Source: Minisyncoccota bacterium
GTDB taxonomy: Bacteria; Patescibacteriota; Minisyncoccia; Phycocordibacterales; UBA9973
Reading direction: 5' to 3'
DNA: 64,000 bases
Assembly: GCA_021734995.1 (NCBI GenBank)
Contig: JAIPHX010000001.1
Coordinates: 52,590 to 116,589, forward strand
Both the position numbers and the translations under genes were made by a program. Below the pieces are notes generated by a model. It was not told the origin of the DNA, did not search any database, and saw nothing but the letters and a program-made list of their open reading frames with translations. Of this stretch, positions 5,265-21,847 are shown one piece after another; the first letter of the stretch is position 1, and each line of letters opens with the position of its first letter.

Positions 5265-6203
5265 TTATTTTTGATGTAGATTACAAAAATGAGCACTTCT
5301 CCCATTTATTACTTTTCTGTGGATTATACCAGAACAATTTTTTAGTAAACATTTTTGTCCTGTGCGTCTATATGCCTTGTGGTGCATTTGGAATTTCCCA
5401 GGGAGTCCATAGATATTGCGATAATCAGACATAGAATCTCCTCCAAAGTCTATCCCTTTTTTTAATATTTTTTGCATCCATGTGTGAATGTTTTTGATTT
5501 CTGTATCAGATAATTTAGAGACTATCTTTTCTGGATGAATGTTTGCGTGAAATAAAATTTCATCAGAATATATATTGCCTACACCTACCAAGACGGATTG
5601 ATCCATCAAAACTGTTTTTATTTTCCCTGTTGGTCTTTTACTCAGACAGACTTTTAATGTTTTGGAGATAAAAGATTTTTCTAGTGGTTCTGGCCCTAGA
5701 TTTTTTAAGTGCTTGCTCTGATAAAGCTTTTCTGTTTCTAGTAAAGTTATTTTACCAAATTTTCGCATATCCGAAAAAGCTAAATGTTTTCCATTTGATA
5801 AAGAAAATACCACGTGCACAAATCTATTGAAAGGATCACTCAAAGCCCCTTCTTTTTCATAGTTGATGTTTTTGATATTTTGAGATTTGGGTATCCATTT
5901 GTTTTCATTTGGAACAAAAACATAAGTACCATACAGGAGATGCCCGGTCATTTTTAAATGTATTAAAATACTTTTTTTATTAGATAAATGAAGCAAAATA
6001 TTTTTTGCCCTCCTTTCTGCTTGAAGTATTTTAGTGTTTAAGATTTCTTTTTTAAAAAGAGGGAAGTGTCTTGGATTGGCGACGGTGTCTGCTTTTCTTT
6101 TGTCTTTTGTTTTTAAATCTGTCCAAACATCAAGGATTTTTAATCCCACTACTTCTACCCGCAATCCTTTTGTGGTTGTTTCTACTTCTGGTAATTCTGG
6201 CAT
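5265..6203 (-). CDS. mutM: Formamidopyrimidine-DNA glycosylase (Fpg/Nei family)
   Basis: N-terminal MPELPEVE with catalytic Pro2 and Glu, an H2TH region, and a C-terminal zinc finger (CLLKNCSGIIHRKVINGRSAHFCNLHQK). Confidence 0.75.
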   Translation of the reverse strand: MPELPEVETTTKGLRVEVVGLKILDVWTDLKTKDKRKADTVANPRHFPLFKKEILNTKILQAERRAKNILLHLSNKKSILIHLKMTGHLLYGTYVFVPNENKWIPKSQNIKNINYEKEGALSDPFNRFVHVVFSLSNGKHLAFSDMRKFGKITLLETEKLYQSKHLKNLGPEPLEKSFISKTLKVCLSKRPTGKIKTVLMDQSVLVGVGNIYSDEILFHANIHPEKIVSKLSDTEIKNIHTWMQKILKKGIDFGGDSMSDYRNIYGLPGKFQMHHKAYRRTGQKCLLKNCSGIIHRKVINGRSAHFCNLHQK

Positions 6204-6858: not shown

Positions 6859-7110
6859 ATGCCAATAACTAAATCAGCTAAAAAAGCGATTAGAGGATCC
6901 CTTCGCAAGAGGGTTTTTAATGATCACAATAAGCGTTCCGTAAAGGAAGCTATTAAGAAGGTTGAAAAGACAGCTAAGACTAGCAAAGAAGAGGCCGTAA
7001 AATTTCTTTCTTCAGCTTATGCCGCGATAGATAAAGCAGCAAAAAGAGGAGTAATAAAGAAAAATACAGCTTCTCGCAAGAAGTCCAAATTAGCTAGATC
7101 TCTAAAATAA
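6859..7110 (+). CDS. rpsT: 30S ribosomal protein S20
   Basis: MPITKSAKKAIRGSLRKRVFNDHNKRS...; typical basic S20 composition and length. Confidence 0.85.
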   Translation: MPITKSAKKAIRGSLRKRVFNDHNKRSVKEAIKKVEKTAKTSKEEAVKFLSSAYAAIDKAAKRGVIKKNTASRKKSKLARSLK

Positions 7111-7374
7111 ATGTCTCATTTATTAGAATTTTATGGTACAGAATGTCCTCATTGTGTGGACATGCATGAGCTCGTGCAAAAACTAGAAAAAGAGGAAGGA
7201 GTCAAGGTGGAAAGATTGGAAGTGTGGCACAACAAAGAAAATGAAAAAAGATTACTTGAGTTAGATAAGGATTTGTGTGGGGGAGTTCCTTTTTTATATA
7301 ACACTAAAACAGATAAATGGATTTGCGGAGAAGTAGATTATTCAGAGTTGAAAGATTGGGCAAAAGGGGAATAG
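7111..7374 (+). CDS. Small thioredoxin-fold (glutaredoxin-like) protein with a CPHC active site
   Basis: 87 aa, YGTECPHCVD redox motif, thioredoxin-fold length. It starts immediately after the rpsT stop. Confidence 0.6.
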   Translation: MSHLLEFYGTECPHCVDMHELVQKLEKEEGVKVERLEVWHNKENEKRLLELDKDLCGGVPFLYNTKTDKWICGEVDYSELKDWAKGE

Positions 7375-17695: not shown

Positions 17696-19423
17696 ATGGA
17701 TACATCAAAAACACCAAAATTTGATAATGCTATAGATAAAATATTAGCAAATCTAAAACCTCACAAAAGAATATGTGAGCAATGTGAAGTAGAGTTTGAA
17801 TTTTTGGATACGGATATTGAATTTTTTAATAAATTTAAGGTTCCACCACCTAGGATGTGTTCAGATTGTCGCAGGCAAAGGAGGTTGGCTTTTGTAAATT
17901 ACACAACTCTTTTTAAGAGAATTTGTAATACACCAACGCATGATGAAAAGATAATTTCTTCAATTCCAGAAGGAACAGAATTTCCAGTTTATGATTTTGA
18001 TTCATATTGGCACGGTGACAGAGATTGGAAAGAATATGGAAAAGATTTTGATTTTAATAAATCTTTTATAAAGCAGTTTAAGGAATTATTTATTAAATCG
18101 CCTCAACCTGCACTTACTCGCAACCCAGAGAGTATTGATAGTGATTATACTTCATATGGGGTTCAACTAAAAAATTGTTATTATGTTTTTGGCGGAATGA
18201 ATGCTGAAAATATTATGTACACTGTCTGGCCTATGATGGTTAAAGATTCTGCAGATTTTCTTATTGCAGTAAACACGGATTTATCGTACGAAGGTGTATA
18301 TCCAGAAAATTGTTATAACTGTAATTTTGTATATTTTTCAAGAGATTGCGTAGATTGTAATTTTACTTTCGATTGCAGGAATTGTAACGACTGCTTTGCT
18401 TGTGTAAATTTGAGAAGTAAAAAATATTGCATTTGGAATAAACAATATTCTAAGGAGGATTACTTTAAAGAAATATCAAAAATTGATTTGGGAGATCAAG
18501 AAACATTAAAAAAATATAAATTAGATTTTATGAGTTTTGTAAAAAAATTACCAGTGAGAGCTACTCGAAATGAACATTCGGAAAATGTATCAGGTAATTA
18601 TCTAATAAATACAAACAATTGTTACAGTACAATGTGGGCAATGAATTCTGAAAATTTAAGTTTTACTGATTTTGTATTAAGATTAAAAGATTCATATGAT
18701 TGTACTGTTTCAGCTGTTGCTGAGAAATTATACAGTACATCAGGTGTCGGGAATAATTGTTTTGATGTAAGGTTTTCTACTTTTGGGAGAGATGTTCGTG
18801 AGTGTGAATATATAATGAATTGTAAAAATTGCACAAATTGTTTTGCTTGCATTGGTCTTGTTAATGCTAAGTTTTGTGTTTTTAATAAACAATATGAAGA
18901 AAGTGAATATTGGAATTTAGTTGATGAAATAAAAACAAAAATGTTAGAAGATAATGAATATGGAGAATTTTTTCCAATGTCAGTAAGCCCCTTCCCTTAT
19001 AATGCCTCTCTTGCAAATATTATTTATCCATCATCTAAAGAAAAAATTCTTAAGTTAAATGGTTGGTGGCATGATGAAGAGTCCGATTTTCCAAAAGGAA
19101 TAGAATTTACAAAAGTTAAAGATATTGAACAAAATATAAAAGATATTTCGGATGTTATTTTAAATAAAGGAATAATAAGCGATAATAATGGTAAACCGTT
19201 TAGAATAACAGAAAGAGAACTTGATTTTTATAAACGTAAGCAAATATCAATTCCAAATATTACTCCATACGAACGTATAATAAATCGCTTTTCTTTTGTT
19301 AATAACTTTAATCTTTTTAAAGATCAGTGTTTCAAATGTAAAACAGAGATTTTGAGTAGCTACGATACAAAAAATGGATTTAAGCCATACTGTGAAAAAT
19401 GTTATCAGCAAGAAGTTTATTAA
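17696..19423 (+). CDS. Cysteine-rich protein family member 1 (575 aa) with N- and C-terminal CxxC...CxxCR zinc-ribbon modules
   Basis: N-terminal CEQCEVEF...FFNKFKVPPPRMCSDCRRQRR; central DCVDCNFTFDCRNCNDCFACVNL...NKQYSKEDY and CKNCTNCFACIGL...NKQYEESEY repeats; C-terminal FYKRKQISIPN...CFKCK...KPYCEKCYQQEVY. Paralogous to the CDS at 32838, 36809 and 38620. Confidence 0.7.
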   Translation: MDTSKTPKFDNAIDKILANLKPHKRICEQCEVEFEFLDTDIEFFNKFKVPPPRMCSDCRRQRRLAFVNYTTLFKRICNTPTHDEKIISSIPEGTEFPVYDFDSYWHGDRDWKEYGKDFDFNKSFIKQFKELFIKSPQPALTRNPESIDSDYTSYGVQLKNCYYVFGGMNAENIMYTVWPMMVKDSADFLIAVNTDLSYEGVYPENCYNCNFVYFSRDCVDCNFTFDCRNCNDCFACVNLRSKKYCIWNKQYSKEDYFKEISKIDLGDQETLKKYKLDFMSFVKKLPVRATRNEHSENVSGNYLINTNNCYSTMWAMNSENLSFTDFVLRLKDSYDCTVSAVAEKLYSTSGVGNNCFDVRFSTFGRDVRECEYIMNCKNCTNCFACIGLVNAKFCVFNKQYEESEYWNLVDEIKTKMLEDNEYGEFFPMSVSPFPYNASLANIIYPSSKEKILKLNGWWHDEESDFPKGIEFTKVKDIEQNIKDISDVILNKGIISDNNGKPFRITERELDFYKRKQISIPNITPYERIINRFSFVNNFNLFKDQCFKCKTEILSSYDTKNGFKPYCEKCYQQEVY

Positions 19424-19467
19424 ATTTAAATAAAATAAAAAATAGAGCTACTTGCAGGGTCTTTCGT

Positions 19468-19579
19468 GGTTTTGCCTGCTGGCAAAACATCGCTCCGGCT
19501 TTCTTCATCTCACCACCATCCCAACACAAGACGCTTTGCCCCCGAGAGCATAAATGCTCTCAGATGCAAATCGTTGCGG
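19468..19579 (+). repeat. 112-bp GC-rich repeat element, copy 1
   Basis: ggttttgcctgctggcaaaacatcgctccgg...gagagcataaatgctctcagatgcaaatcgttgcgg. Identical (one mismatch) to 21644..21755 and contains internal hairpins. Confidence 0.6.
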
Positions 19580-19643
19580 GCCATGTGGATTCAGTCCCAG
19601 AGCGGTAAGGCACCATAAGGGTTGCTCAGTAAATTTTCAGAGT

Positions 19644-20654
19644 CTAAACTGAGGCCTGTGGGACTGTTGCCTTTTTACAAACCAGTAACATGCAAGGGTA
19701 TTTGTTGTTCTTTCTATCGAGAAAATATTCTGTTTGATCTACAACTGTTAAATTATTTTCCTTAAGTAAAGCATCTATCCACCCTTTCTTGTAATAATGG
19801 TAATAATTTTCTGGATCCCCAACACCCACATGATCTTCGTTTCCAGTCTCACCATATTCGTATATGGGCACAACATAATCTCCTTTTAGTTTTTCTGTAT
19901 CCTCCACAGAAATCATAAAACAAAGTTGGCCATCATTTGAGATCATTGATGACATATCCCGAATAAAAGTGTGCATCCCTTCAGGATTAAAGTATGTTGC
20001 AACACCGATAGAAATTATGTTTTTAGGATTAAGATTTCTAAATTTCTTCGGAATACCTTTTTGTAAATCAGAAACAACAAGTTCTTGGTATGTCTCTTTT
20101 ACCACATTATTCTTTAACATCTGTGGAGATATGTCTGTCCCGAATAGTTTTATATTCTTACCTTCTTTTTGGGTTGCTTCAACCAGAATTTTTGCGGAAA
20201 GACCGGTCCCTGTACCTAAATCGAGAACAATATCGCCATCTGAAAGTTCAGCTGTTATAAGAGAAATTTTTTCGGAAAAAACTTTGAGAGAATTATCCTC
20301 TTCAAGAGCCCCATTGCTGTATTGTTCTCCTACTTCGTTTGAAGTCCAGTAATTATTCAATTCTTCCAAGCGTTCAGAGGACTTGGTCTGGATAAGTTCA
20401 AGTATGCAATTTTTTGATTCACTTCCGAGAATACCTTTCTGGCTTAATCCTTCCAGTATTTGAGGTACTTTTCTTTTTAGTTGCTGAGGCAAATTAAGCT
20501 TTAATGTACCTAAAATAAAACGGTATGCGTCCTCACCTTCAGGTGTTTGCAGTAATTCAGTCCTTGCCTCTCGTATTTGTAATTCTTGAGCGGCTAGAGC
20601 TGTCTCTGATGTAGGTTTTATTATAGGTGGTTGTTGTGCGGGTTTAAAAGTCAT
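19644..20654 (-). CDS. Class I SAM-dependent methyltransferase (336 aa) with an extra N-terminal domain
   Basis: Motif I VLDLGTGTGLSA, post-I acidic residue (FGTDIS), Rossmann-fold order. Confidence 0.7.
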   Translation of the reverse strand: MTFKPAQQPPIIKPTSETALAAQELQIREARTELLQTPEGEDAYRFILGTLKLNLPQQLKRKVPQILEGLSQKGILGSESKNCILELIQTKSSERLEELNNYWTSNEVGEQYSNGALEEDNSLKVFSEKISLITAELSDGDIVLDLGTGTGLSAKILVEATQKEGKNIKLFGTDISPQMLKNNVVKETYQELVVSDLQKGIPKKFRNLNPKNIISIGVATYFNPEGMHTFIRDMSSMISNDGQLCFMISVEDTEKLKGDYVVPIYEYGETGNEDHVGVGDPENYYHYYKKGWIDALLKENNLTVVDQTEYFLDRKNNKYPCMLLVCKKATVPQASV

Positions 20655-20709
20655 ATATCTATTCTAGCTTACTAATCCCGATTTGGGTAATCAGGCATTC
20701 GGGTCGGGC

Positions 20710-21507
20710 TTACTTTGTTGCAACAACAATCATATCTTCGGCATTTTCAGAATACTCACCACCCTCCCATCCAGAATAAGTAACTACTGAAGAAAATCCT
20801 ACTTTCCTACACATTTCTTCAAATTCTTCCTTTGTGTAAACTCGAACAGAGTAATCTTTTCTTTCTTCTTTACCATTGCTTTGAATAATCCATGCTCCGT
20901 TAATTCTTTTTGTTTGAGGATCGTATGAATCAATGATTCTGAGAGTTTTTCCTGTGAGAAGATTACGTTGTTCATCCTCTTTATATTTTCCTGACAGAAT
21001 TCTCGGTACATTCACATCAGTGTGCATTAAAAATTTTCCGCCAGGTTTTAGTGCATTAAAGAAATTTTTTAGCACTTTTTCATTTTCCTCATCTGTGTCA
21101 AAAAAGCCAAATGAGTAGAACATATTGATAACACCATCAAACCTTGAGGAGTATTGCAGGTCGAGCATGCTTTCCTTGCTGAAAGTTATATTGAGCGAAT
21201 ATGCTTTCACAGCATCGATCGCCTTTTGCAAATGAACAGAATTGATATCTGAGCCTACCACTTCAAATCCTTGTCGAGCAAGTTCGATGCTATGTCTGCC
21301 GTATCCGCATGGGCAATCAAGAACGCTAGCACCATCTTTTAAGGACAAGAGCTTAACTACTCCAACTACTTCAGTTACAGTTCTTTCTTTTAAACTCTGC
21401 TTCTTTTCAATAAGGTATCCTTCTTGTGATGCGTCTCCATCCATATAAAAATTACCGAAGAAACCATATTCTTCTGACCACCATGGATTTTTTGCGTCTT
21501 GAGGCAT
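20710..21507 (-). CDS. Class I SAM-dependent methyltransferase (265 aa)
   Basis: Motif I VLDCPCGYGRHS, motif II/III (GVINMFYSFGF ... LKPGGKFLM). Confidence 0.7.
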   Translation of the reverse strand: MPQDAKNPWWSEEYGFFGNFYMDGDASQEGYLIEKKQSLKERTVTEVVGVVKLLSLKDGASVLDCPCGYGRHSIELARQGFEVVGSDINSVHLQKAIDAVKAYSLNITFSKESMLDLQYSSRFDGVINMFYSFGFFDTDEENEKVLKNFFNALKPGGKFLMHTDVNVPRILSGKYKEDEQRNLLTGKTLRIIDSYDPQTKRINGAWIIQSNGKEERKDYSVRVYTKEEFEEMCRKVGFSSVVTYSGWEGGEYSENAEDMIVVATK

Positions 21508-21569
21508 ATAGATATTTTAACTTAATTCAAACAATTTAGCAACTCGGGTCATCCGATACTCTATTTTTT

Positions 21570-21591
21570 GTTGCGGAGGCGGTGAGATTCG
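21570..21591 (-). other. 22-nt duplicate of the tRNA-Ser 3' end (att-like fragment)
   Basis: gttgcggaggcggtgagattcg is identical to 21749..21770 inside tRNA-Ser and diverges afterwards. Confidence 0.5.
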
Positions 21592-21643
21592 GTCACAGAT
21601 AATTTCTTCGCCGTCGCTCAGAAATTTCTGCGACCCCGCCTCG

Positions 21644-21755
21644 CGGTTTTGCCTGCTGGCAAAACATCGCTCCGGCTTTCTTCATCTCACCACCATCCCA
21701 ACACAAGACGCTTTGCCCCCGAGAGCATAAATGCTCTCAGATGTAAATCGTTGCG
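21644..21755 (+). repeat. 112-bp GC-rich repeat element, copy 2, abutting and overlapping the 3' end of tRNA-Ser by 3 nt
   Basis: Same sequence as 19468..19579 with one c/t difference. Confidence 0.6.
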
Positions 21756-21837
21756 GAGGCGGTGAGATTCGAACTCACGGTGCCTTTCGACACTCCTGTT
21801 TTCAAGACAGGTGCACTAAACCACTATGCGACGCCTC
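21753..21837 (-). tRNA. tRNA-Ser (anticodon TGA), class II with a long variable arm
   Basis: Reverse complement GGAGGCG-TC-GCA..TGC-A-CCTGT-CTTGAAA-ACAGG-AGTGTCGAAAGGCACC-GTGAG-TTCGAAT-CTCAC-CGCCTCC-G, with discriminator G. Confidence 0.8.
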
Positions 21838-21847
21838 CAATATTATT

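Follow-up and report, generated by a model that had tools for sequence, protein, structure and literature searches.

A gene-less structured module behind tRNA and other stable-RNA genes of Patescibacteria as a possible small insertion element

The DNA analyzed here (the window) is a stretch of 64,000 nucleotides from a Minisyncoccota bacterium (assembly GCA_021734995.1, contig JAIPHX010000001.1, positions 52,590 to 116,589 of the forward strand), and the subject of this work is a GC-rich sequence, R, which occurs in two copies (R1 and R2) around two methyltransferase genes, next to a gene for tRNA-Ser(TGA). The initial annotation, made from the letters alone, described R1 and R2 as a 112-nt repeat differing by one base, more GC-rich than the genome, with two internal hairpins (ggttttgcc/ggcaaaac and gagagcat/atgctctc). 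It placed R2 directly behind the tRNA gene and overlapping its end, noticed an exact 22-nt copy of the tRNA 3′ end about 52 nt past R2, and saw only two class-I S-adenosylmethionine (SAM) methyltransferase genes between this copy and R1. All of these observations were borne out. A repeat search of the window extended the direct repeat to 116 nt (19464–19579 and 21641–21756; 98% identity, 2 mismatches), and a 50-mer taken from R occurred exactly twice in the window, compared with 0 expected from shuffles. The GC content of R was 51–55%, against a window mean of 34%, and both hairpins are present. The tRNA-Ser(TGA) gene, called by ARAGORN, is overlapped by R2 in its last 3–4 nt. The 22-mer, GTTGCGGAGGCGGTGAGATTCG, was found as an exact match at two positions (X copies 1 and 2 in Table 1), the downstream one at a distance of 52 nt from R2, and the open reading frames (ORFs) and Pfam matches placed only the two methyltransferase genes between it and R1. 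The pair of tRNA-end repeats encloses only 158 bp with no ORF inside. Among the six tRNA genes of the window, all of which were checked, the other five have neither a duplicated 3′ end nor a GC-rich tail.

The unit at the tRNA-Ser gene is not R alone but R2 together with a 44-nt hairpin (P3), previously regarded as a spacer between R2 and the 22-mer, and the downstream 22-mer itself. The 22-mer (X) pairs with a segment of R2 (X′), and this helix closes a three-way junction. The module is therefore about 180 nt long, with R2 making up its 5′ two-thirds and the 22-mer its 3′ arm. The proposal that the duplicated tRNA end is an attL/attR-style signature bounding the methyltransferase genes was therefore not upheld: the 22-mer belongs to the module, pairs with X′ and brackets 158 bp only. 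The complete module has a minimum free energy of −90.8 kcal/mol (z = −9.0) and the same fold as the family consensus described below, which consists of a variable hairpin, the helix P1, and a three-way junction with the Pa-P2 arm and the P3 hairpin. P1 is formed by X′ and X copy 2, and the duplex of X′ with the 22-mer is predicted at −30.4 kcal/mol. The variable hairpin stands at the site of the terminator-like hairpin of other loci, and is here without a U-tract. A search of the window with the covariance model (CM) of the family gave the complete copy and R1 only.

Table 1. Features at the tRNA-Ser(TGA) locus (window coordinates).
Feature	Position	Strand	Basis
tRNA-Ser(TGA), CCA not encoded, host gene of the module	21754–21838	minus	ARAGORN; Rfam tRNA model, 61.6 bits
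X copy 1 (CGAATCTCACCGCCTCCGCAAC), upstream direct repeat, T-loop C56 through discriminator plus 4 nt of trailer	21750–21771	minus	exact 22-nt repeat
Complete module, ~180 nt: 158-nt insert (21592–21749) plus 3′ arm	21570–21749	minus	CM match, 119.9 bits, E = 2.7e-32
Variable hairpin, GAGAGCAU-UU-AUGCUCUC	21721–21738	minus	sequence, fold
X′, 19-nt 5′ arm (GUUGGGAUGGUGGUGAGAU), antisense to tRNA 3′ end and trailer	21684–21702	minus	fold
Pa-P2 arm, GCC-GGA-GCG-AU-[ GUUUUGCC AGCA GGCAAAAC ]-C-GC-GA-GGC	21638–21676	minus	covarying pairs
P2, the ggttttgcc/ggcaaaac stem, with AGCA loop	21646–21665	minus	covarying pairs
P3, long hairpin, 44 nt, tip GA-GC[GACG]GC-GA	21592–21635	minus	14/17 pairs changed on both sides; CM alignment
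X copy 2, 3′ arm: exact tRNA 3′ end plus CAAC, then A-run	21570–21591	minus	exact repeat; empty-site match in L046
Class-I SAM methyltransferase, 265 aa, outside the X repeat pair	20710–21507	minus	Pfam Methyltransf_25/31/23/11
Methyltransferase-like gene, 336 aa	19644–20654	minus	weak Pfam matches
Possible degenerate copy of the tRNA end before R1 (GAAUCCACAUGGCCCGCAAC), 15/21 positions matching X with one gap	19573–19592	minus	read from sequence
R1, truncated second copy: CCGCAAC, variable hairpin (19544–19561), X′ (19507–19525), Pa 5′ strand, P2 (19469–19488)	19464–19579	minus	CM, 46.6 bits, 5′ part only; direct repeat

The family was collected by a search for the exact 21-nt P2 hairpin in one genome per species. 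The scan gave 40 loci, all from metagenome-assembled genomes of Patescibacteria, and 38 of them carry the module; L030 was rejected as a chance match within a coding region. From the record titles, the genomes belong to Paceibacterota, Saccharibacteria, and Nomura-, Kaiser-, Uhr-, Falkow- and Gribaldobacteria. When the loci were aligned on the hairpin, they had a core in common around it, GCCGGAGCGAUG-P2-CCGCGAGGCGG-P3, and the CM constructed from this core recovered all of the loci at 75–118 bits. The CM also yielded copies with an altered P2 but the same AGCA loop (L033, GUUCGGCC/GGCCGAAC; L001, GUUUCUUC/GAAGAAAC). As for the copy number, the 64-kb window contains one complete and one truncated copy, and the 21-mer scan gave one or two exact-hairpin matches per genome. 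The Rfam search advised by the initial annotation matched no family: Rfam 15 gave no match over the core in the window at E up to 10 or in eight other loci at E up to 1, and the sX4 matches that were obtained stem from the tRNA-Ser part. Viral contigs had zero matches to a window-specific 26-mer, a P2 20-mer and a degenerate Pa/P2 pattern, the 26-mer being a poor choice of query that lay in the variable part of the module, and blastn against phage and plasmid collections was without any match to the module. All-against-all clustering and Pfam analysis of 148 ORFs within 3 kb of the modules showed only housekeeping families to recur; protein "clusters" overlapping the element turned out to be spurious antisense ORFs. 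The literature searched contained no description of the module, and the family is apparently undescribed so far.

The core structure was then judged by its covariation. In the plain MAFFT alignment, 90.3% of the cells were paired, compared with 31–48% when the partners were slid. Changes on both sides were observed in 18 of the 31 pairs, and no shuffle reached the observed covariation. In Pa, C-G and G-C alternate (19 versus 12 sequences), and the GCG/CGC step covaries too. In P3, double changes were found in 14 of 17 pairs, and the tips without the tandem G·A pairs carry Watson-Crick U-A pairs instead. The P1 helix, in register, also showed significant pairing and covariation across the family. 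Thus, compensatory changes that keep the helices exceeded both the slid-partner and the shuffle controls, as is demanded of a structured RNA. Since G·U pairs exceed A·C pairs, both in the core (69 versus 20) and in the palindrome upstream of it (40 versus 16), the folding strand is the tRNA-sense strand. These structural data fit an RNA, and the same strand as single-stranded DNA would fit as well. One reading in the initial annotation took R as a structured noncoding RNA present in two copies; the covariation supports the structured core, but only one of the copies is complete.

A tRNA gene was found within 400 nt of 29 of the 41 modules, and all of these 29 tRNA genes are upstream of the module on the same strand. 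The hosts are tRNAs for Ser (four anticodons), Lys, Arg, Trp, Leu, Asp, Tyr, Pro, Glu, Ile and Val. Among the other sites, L014 is located behind a tmRNA gene, L013 and L027 in the spacer between 16S and tRNA-Ile, and L015 behind a protein gene. The layout of the family from 5′ to 3′ is a hairpin, mostly terminator-like, the antisense arm, Pa-P2 with the AGCA tetraloop, P3 with the tandem-G·A tip, and, in about half of the members, the gene end repeated in sense orientation; pairing of the two arms closes the three-way junction. In nearly every case, Pa is immediately preceded on its 5′ side by an antisense match to the end of the local gene. This antisense arm spans the last 5–20 nt of the host gene plus the trailer, and it makes a palindrome around the intervening hairpin, usually the terminator-like one, with a median of 22 paired positions; some of the upstream palindromes are perfect over 22–23 bp. 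In long-arm members the antisense arm extends to the T-loop (…GGGAUUCGAA) and is split at the acceptor/T-stem boundary by a side hairpin, often with a CUGC loop, and in short-arm members it is limited to the last 5–8 nt. The sense copy of the gene end follows P3 directly in about half of the modules, and it begins at C56 of the T-loop in at least seven of them, at different tRNAs. The resulting direct repeat varies from about 6 to 44 nt across the loci and runs through the terminator in some (44 nt in L039; L009 is similar).

Two further observations were made on the hairpins and hosts. The tetraloop CUGC is very frequent in the hairpin 5′ of, or inside, the antisense arm (for example, L005 6103–6126, L039 ~290–312 and L033 ~5655–5676). 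It is complementary to GCAG, that is, the AGCA loop of P2 plus the closing G, and the copy in the window is without CUGC. The CUGC loop could be a tertiary contact or a shared protein site; a kissing interaction between CUGC and AGCA was considered and dropped as sterically doubtful. At L009 3240–3300, a tRNA-like 3′ end (…GGGUUCAAGUCCCGUCCCUCGCGCA) lies ahead of the module, where ARAGORN called no tRNA, and this stretch may belong to an atypical tRNA gene, for instance one with an intron.

The arrangement behind the host genes could suggest a resident, host-beneficial noncoding RNA that is not mobile, namely a trailer RNA of tRNA operons that folds back through its antisense arm onto the 3′ end and trailer of the tRNA. 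Such an RNA could guide 3′ processing (e.g., as a site for a double-stranded RNase), control termination, or act as a stable protein-binding small RNA. The covariation and the strand-specific G·U pairs agree with this explanation, as do the strict co-orientation with the upstream gene and the terminators that flank the module; moreover, the antisense arm includes trailer nucleotides, so that it matches the precursor and not the mature tRNA. However, the host genes are many and non-orthologous, tandem and truncated copies exist, the module is absent from a syntenic relative, and only one of the six tRNA genes in the window has a module. Homologous cores behind more than 12 kinds of tRNA cannot each have originated in place, so that the core must have moved, and a resident RNA is considered unlikely.

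The pattern predicted for an empty site, i.e., the tRNA T-arm followed by X, CAAC and an A-run, matched one metagenome contig, L046. This contig is syntenic with the window, as it contains tRNA-Ser(TGA), a DUF5652 gene and RuvX, and then tRNA-Val and tRNA-Arg(TCT). Its tRNA-Ser gene is followed by CAAC and the A-run, and both the module and the methyltransferase genes are absent. In the window, the CAAC and A-run context is kept by the downstream 22-mer copy, and therefore the 158-nt insert sits between two tRNA-end copies. The comparison with a relative lacking the methyltransferase pair, which the initial annotation had advised, was thus obtained, but with a moderately distant relative and not a sister strain. 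Tandem modules are present at L004, L010, L017 and L035, and truncated remnants at L009, L022 and L038.

From these results we favor the explanation that the module is a small, non-autonomous, structured insertion module, specific for the ends of stable-RNA genes, whose family has spread across Patescibacteria, and we give it a probability of about 0.55. It is close to one of the readings in the initial annotation, a small non-autonomous element at tRNA ends, with the difference that the unit is R2, P3 and the 22-mer, and not R. We infer that the element is mobilized in trans. It would enter at the T-loop/3′-end region of stable-RNA genes, and the tRNA would stay intact. The direct repeat would arise either by duplication of the target at insertion or from a copy of the gene end that the element brings with it; the comparison of the A-run with L046 favors the latter. 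At most loci, the module would supply a new terminator. The relevant folded form would be an RNA made by read-through from the host gene, with the conserved hairpins as a platform for protein binding. An RNA, rather than single-stranded DNA of the same strand, is the most likely form, at somewhat better than even odds; a function of the core at the RNA level is favored by the co-orientation with the host genes, the G·U bias and the G·A motifs. For the matching of the antisense arm to a new target, templated fold-back copying at the terminator hairpin and guide-directed insertion are the candidate processes.

Several points weigh against this explanation. Neither a transposase nor an integrase or reverse transcriptase could be connected with the family, and the module was not observed in an excised or circular form. 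A good intrinsic terminator lies between the tRNA and the core at most loci, which weighs against strong co-transcription and leaves room for a role at the DNA level. About half of the modules, the short-arm ones, have no clear downstream copy of the gene end, and therefore a single insertion geometry does not fit all. The sole empty site comes from the moderately distant relative mentioned above. The extreme conservation of P2 is in part an effect of ascertainment, because the search demanded the exact 21-mer. Finally, the processes named above for fitting the antisense arm to a new target are proposals.

The functional form could also be folded single-stranded DNA, in which the palindrome of gene end, hairpin and antisense arm is an attachment site that mimics the target duplex and is used by a host or helper recombinase or an HUH enzyme. 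By analogy with CTX phage and XerCD and with integron attC, the core hairpins would then be protein-binding or priming sites. The order of gene end, hairpin, antisense arm, core and gene end is the exact outcome of single-strand exchange with a folded site, and the palindrome arms are near-perfect over 22–38 bp including irregular bases of the A/T-tract, which suggests templated copying; furthermore, G·T pairs are tolerated in DNA hairpins as well. This explanation stays alive because of the intrinsic terminators upstream of the core and the near-perfect palindromes. It must, however, do without a recombinase or HUH gene nearby and without phage, plasmid or viral copies, and both the U-A pairs that replace the tandem G·A pairs at the P3 tip and the conserved tetraloops are typical features of RNA motifs. 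In addition, the side hairpin inside the antisense arm of long-arm members would spoil the mimicry of a duplex. We therefore regard a purely DNA-level function as quite unlikely.

A new kind of mobile element, programmed by a guide, can also be imagined. In this model, the antisense arm would be a long guide (5–20 nt) with the 3′ ends of highly expressed stable-RNA genes as its targets, and the segment duplicated on insertion would be exactly the one that the guide matches. Templated copying, for instance fold-back synthesis at the terminator hairpin, would overwrite the arm, and the enzyme would be encoded elsewhere in the genome. We hold this model to be rather improbable.

The module was compared with known systems that share some of its properties. 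Integrative elements of tRNA and tmRNA genes and the cis-mobilizable elements (CIMEs) derived from them by loss of the integrase insert into the 3′ part of the gene, give a direct repeat from the T-loop to the end, regenerate the gene, and commonly undergo tandem accretion. The module resembles them in its position at the gene 3′ end and in the direct repeat of a tRNA part (exact over 22 nt, with 158 bp enclosed). In contrast, it is only about 180 nt long and gene-less, with an inverted copy of the target and a covarying core of RNA type, and a single module family occupies over 12 different tRNAs, in contrast to the one site of a given integrase. No integrase or cargo lies between the repeats, and no integrase family was present among the recurrent Pfam families (at least two members) within 3 kb of the other modules. 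The attP(+) of CTX phage with XerCD and the attC of integrons are similar in that one strand folds through inverted repeats into a hairpin, which is the partner in recombination, and mismatches are tolerated, but these are fixed sequences for one recombinase and target, while the arms of the module vary with the neighboring gene. Reading of the module sequence gave no dif-like or attC core motif; the boundary GTTGCGG has C at an R position of GTTRRRY. A dif or DNA-uptake sequence was considered and dropped.

Members of IS200/IS605 and their miniature derivatives, the palindrome-associated transposable elements (PATEs), are likewise small, strand-specific, hairpin-rich and orientation-specific, and an internal guide next to a hairpin pairs with the flanking target. 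However, their guides are 4–5 nt and there is no target copy, and TnpA/TnpB or an omega-RNA would be expected, none of which was found at the modules. The bridge RNA of IS110 and TIGR-Tas are structured RNAs with variable segments complementary to both target strands and with G·A or K-turn-like motifs. TIGR-Tas has been reported in the candidate phyla radiation (CPR), the group of the ultra-small Patescibacteria, with an array of 8–12-nt repeats alternating with 9-nt spacers (PMC12045711). The module differs from both systems, since it has no adjacent DEDD/serine recombinase or Nop-domain gene and no repeat array, its neighbors are housekeeping genes, and its arms, rather than matching adjacent segments, both correspond to one target segment and are mutually complementary. 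Theta ribozymes, which are similar to that of hepatitis delta virus (HDV), occur beside tRNA genes (PMC10879173). These, and GOLLD/ROOL, share with the module a structured RNA beside tRNA genes that depends on tRNA transcription or processing, but the module is located in bacterial chromosomes and not in phages, has no Rfam match, and closes its junction with target-derived arms.

Other identities were also rejected. A miniature inverted-repeat transposable element (MITE) would have fixed terminal inverted repeats and a duplication of fixed length, whereas the arms here differ from locus to locus and match the local gene. A retron noncoding RNA has a closing helix, as the module does, but no reverse transcriptase was found among the recurrent Pfam families (at least two members) near the modules. 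Described RNA families (ribozymes, omega-RNA/HEARO, retron msr and Y RNA-like) had no Rfam 15 model matching over the core, and hammerhead, HDV and hairpin ribozymes had no model match. Domain V or the 5′ end of a group II intron was discarded because the bulge lies on the strand opposite to the required one and the GUGCG only reflects complementarity to tRNA ends; a group I intron was dropped, and the report PMC13011429 concerns introns at position 35/36. A primer-binding site for mature tRNA does not suit an arm that pairs with trailer nucleotides and not with CCA, nor does a mimic of the acceptor/T-arm for RNase Z or CCA addition suit a paired discriminator and trailer. The module family was therefore rated as a small insertion element that targets tRNA gene ends.

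If this is true, minimal CPR genomes carry a conserved, structured, gene-less element whose arms are adapted individually to the many tRNA, tmRNA and other genes at whose ends it resides. The CPR bacteria have minimal genomes with few recognized mobile elements. The family would provide a new motif of RNA (or single-stranded DNA), with about 40 examples, for family databases, and it would explain the GC-rich islands and fragments of tRNA ends in these genomes, which might otherwise be taken for the scars of prophages. It also raises the question of how a gene-less element gains sense and antisense copies of each target, and the answer could expose an unrecognized templated or guided recombination.

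With respect to R1 and the methyltransferase genes, a decayed integrative island at tRNA-Ser has to be considered, in which R1 and R2 would be the boundaries and the methyltransferase pair the cargo. R1 and R2 are 98% identical and flank both genes, and L046 is without both of them. The 336-aa protein is a near-orphan, with itself and one 51%-identical homolog among 5.8 billion proteins, while the 265-aa gene is widely transferred horizontally, with homologs of 60–91% identity across CPR, Firmicutes and archaea. On the other hand, the tRNA-end repeat brackets only 158 bp and leaves the methyltransferase genes outside, there is no integrase, and R1 is a truncated module and not an attachment site: P3, X and the 3′ strand of Pa past CGA are missing from it, and a C·A mismatch disrupts one pair of Pa. 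The association of methyltransferase and module did not recur, as the approximately 38 modules elsewhere have no such cargo and no third (distal) copy of the tRNA end, and the closest homologs of the 265-aa methyltransferase lie in unrelated accessory or defense contexts with no tRNA or module nearby. Because of these homolog contexts, the methyltransferases are not a regular cargo, and the island bounded by R, which the initial annotation had listed first, does not hold as a general rule. We consider an island very unlikely, and the duplicated tRNA 3′ end at this locus should not be used in annotation as the marker of one.

R1 probably arose when the methyltransferase segment was joined by recombination through R, and the arrival of the pair by this route in this one genome is possible. 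The near-identity of R1 and R2, together with the abrupt break after P2, would fit a recent event of this kind. A Logan unitig of 2138 bp corresponds to window 19537–21674, and the assembly graph breaks inside the repeat. The earlier claim that the stretch at 19580–19643 is structured found little support: it does contain an 8-nt inverted repeat, but the 241-nt stretch around R1 gave z = −2.1, only marginally beyond the shuffles, and it has no counterpart in the family. The closest homolog of the 265-aa methyltransferase (91%; L052 1178–3877) is beside SAVED, SMODS (CBASS-like) and Peptidase_S24 genes, and another homolog, in L049, is beside a ParB-N6 DNA methyltransferase; the 265-aa methyltransferase moves with accessory or defense genes.

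On the other side of R1 lies a gene for a Cys-rich protein (575 aa, CxxC-rich; 17696–19423, plus strand) with no Pfam match. It has more than 2,300 homologs in CPR, and in one relative it is flanked by DUF87/TrwB/TraG-like ATPases, so that it may be part of a gene set for DNA translocation. The gene order around this neighbor was not kept in a relative at 68% identity. In a relative with a 92%-identical protein, the 1.9-kb contig ends beside the gene in a sequence that resembles the Pa 3′ strand and the start of P3, which hints, tentatively, at a former module at the position of R1.

Some observations were made apart from these subjects. In L013 (465–1700) and L027 (6057–6890), the 16S rRNA gene is split near position ~1400 by an intron with a LAGLIDADG ORF (L013 794–1342) and an Rfam group-II-D1D4-1 match (L013 765–874, 52 bits); this is of note, since a recent survey reported none of the group II type in Patescibacteria (PMC13011429). 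In L027, a hairpin-rich sequence of about 270 nt (7030–7300; ~1500–1750 in L013) separates the 3′ end of the 16S gene from the module. It ends in L027 with …GGGACAGAAUAGGCGGAACAAAAGAGCGCAC, has no Rfam match, and is partly N-masked. In the window, a 227-aa ORF (11413–12096, minus strand) with 55–60% GC in a genome of 34% GC is located about 265 nt 3′ of tRNA-Arg(GCG) (12361–12434). There is no Rfam match and no tRNA-end copy nearby, and the ORF looks like a foreign gene next to a tRNA.

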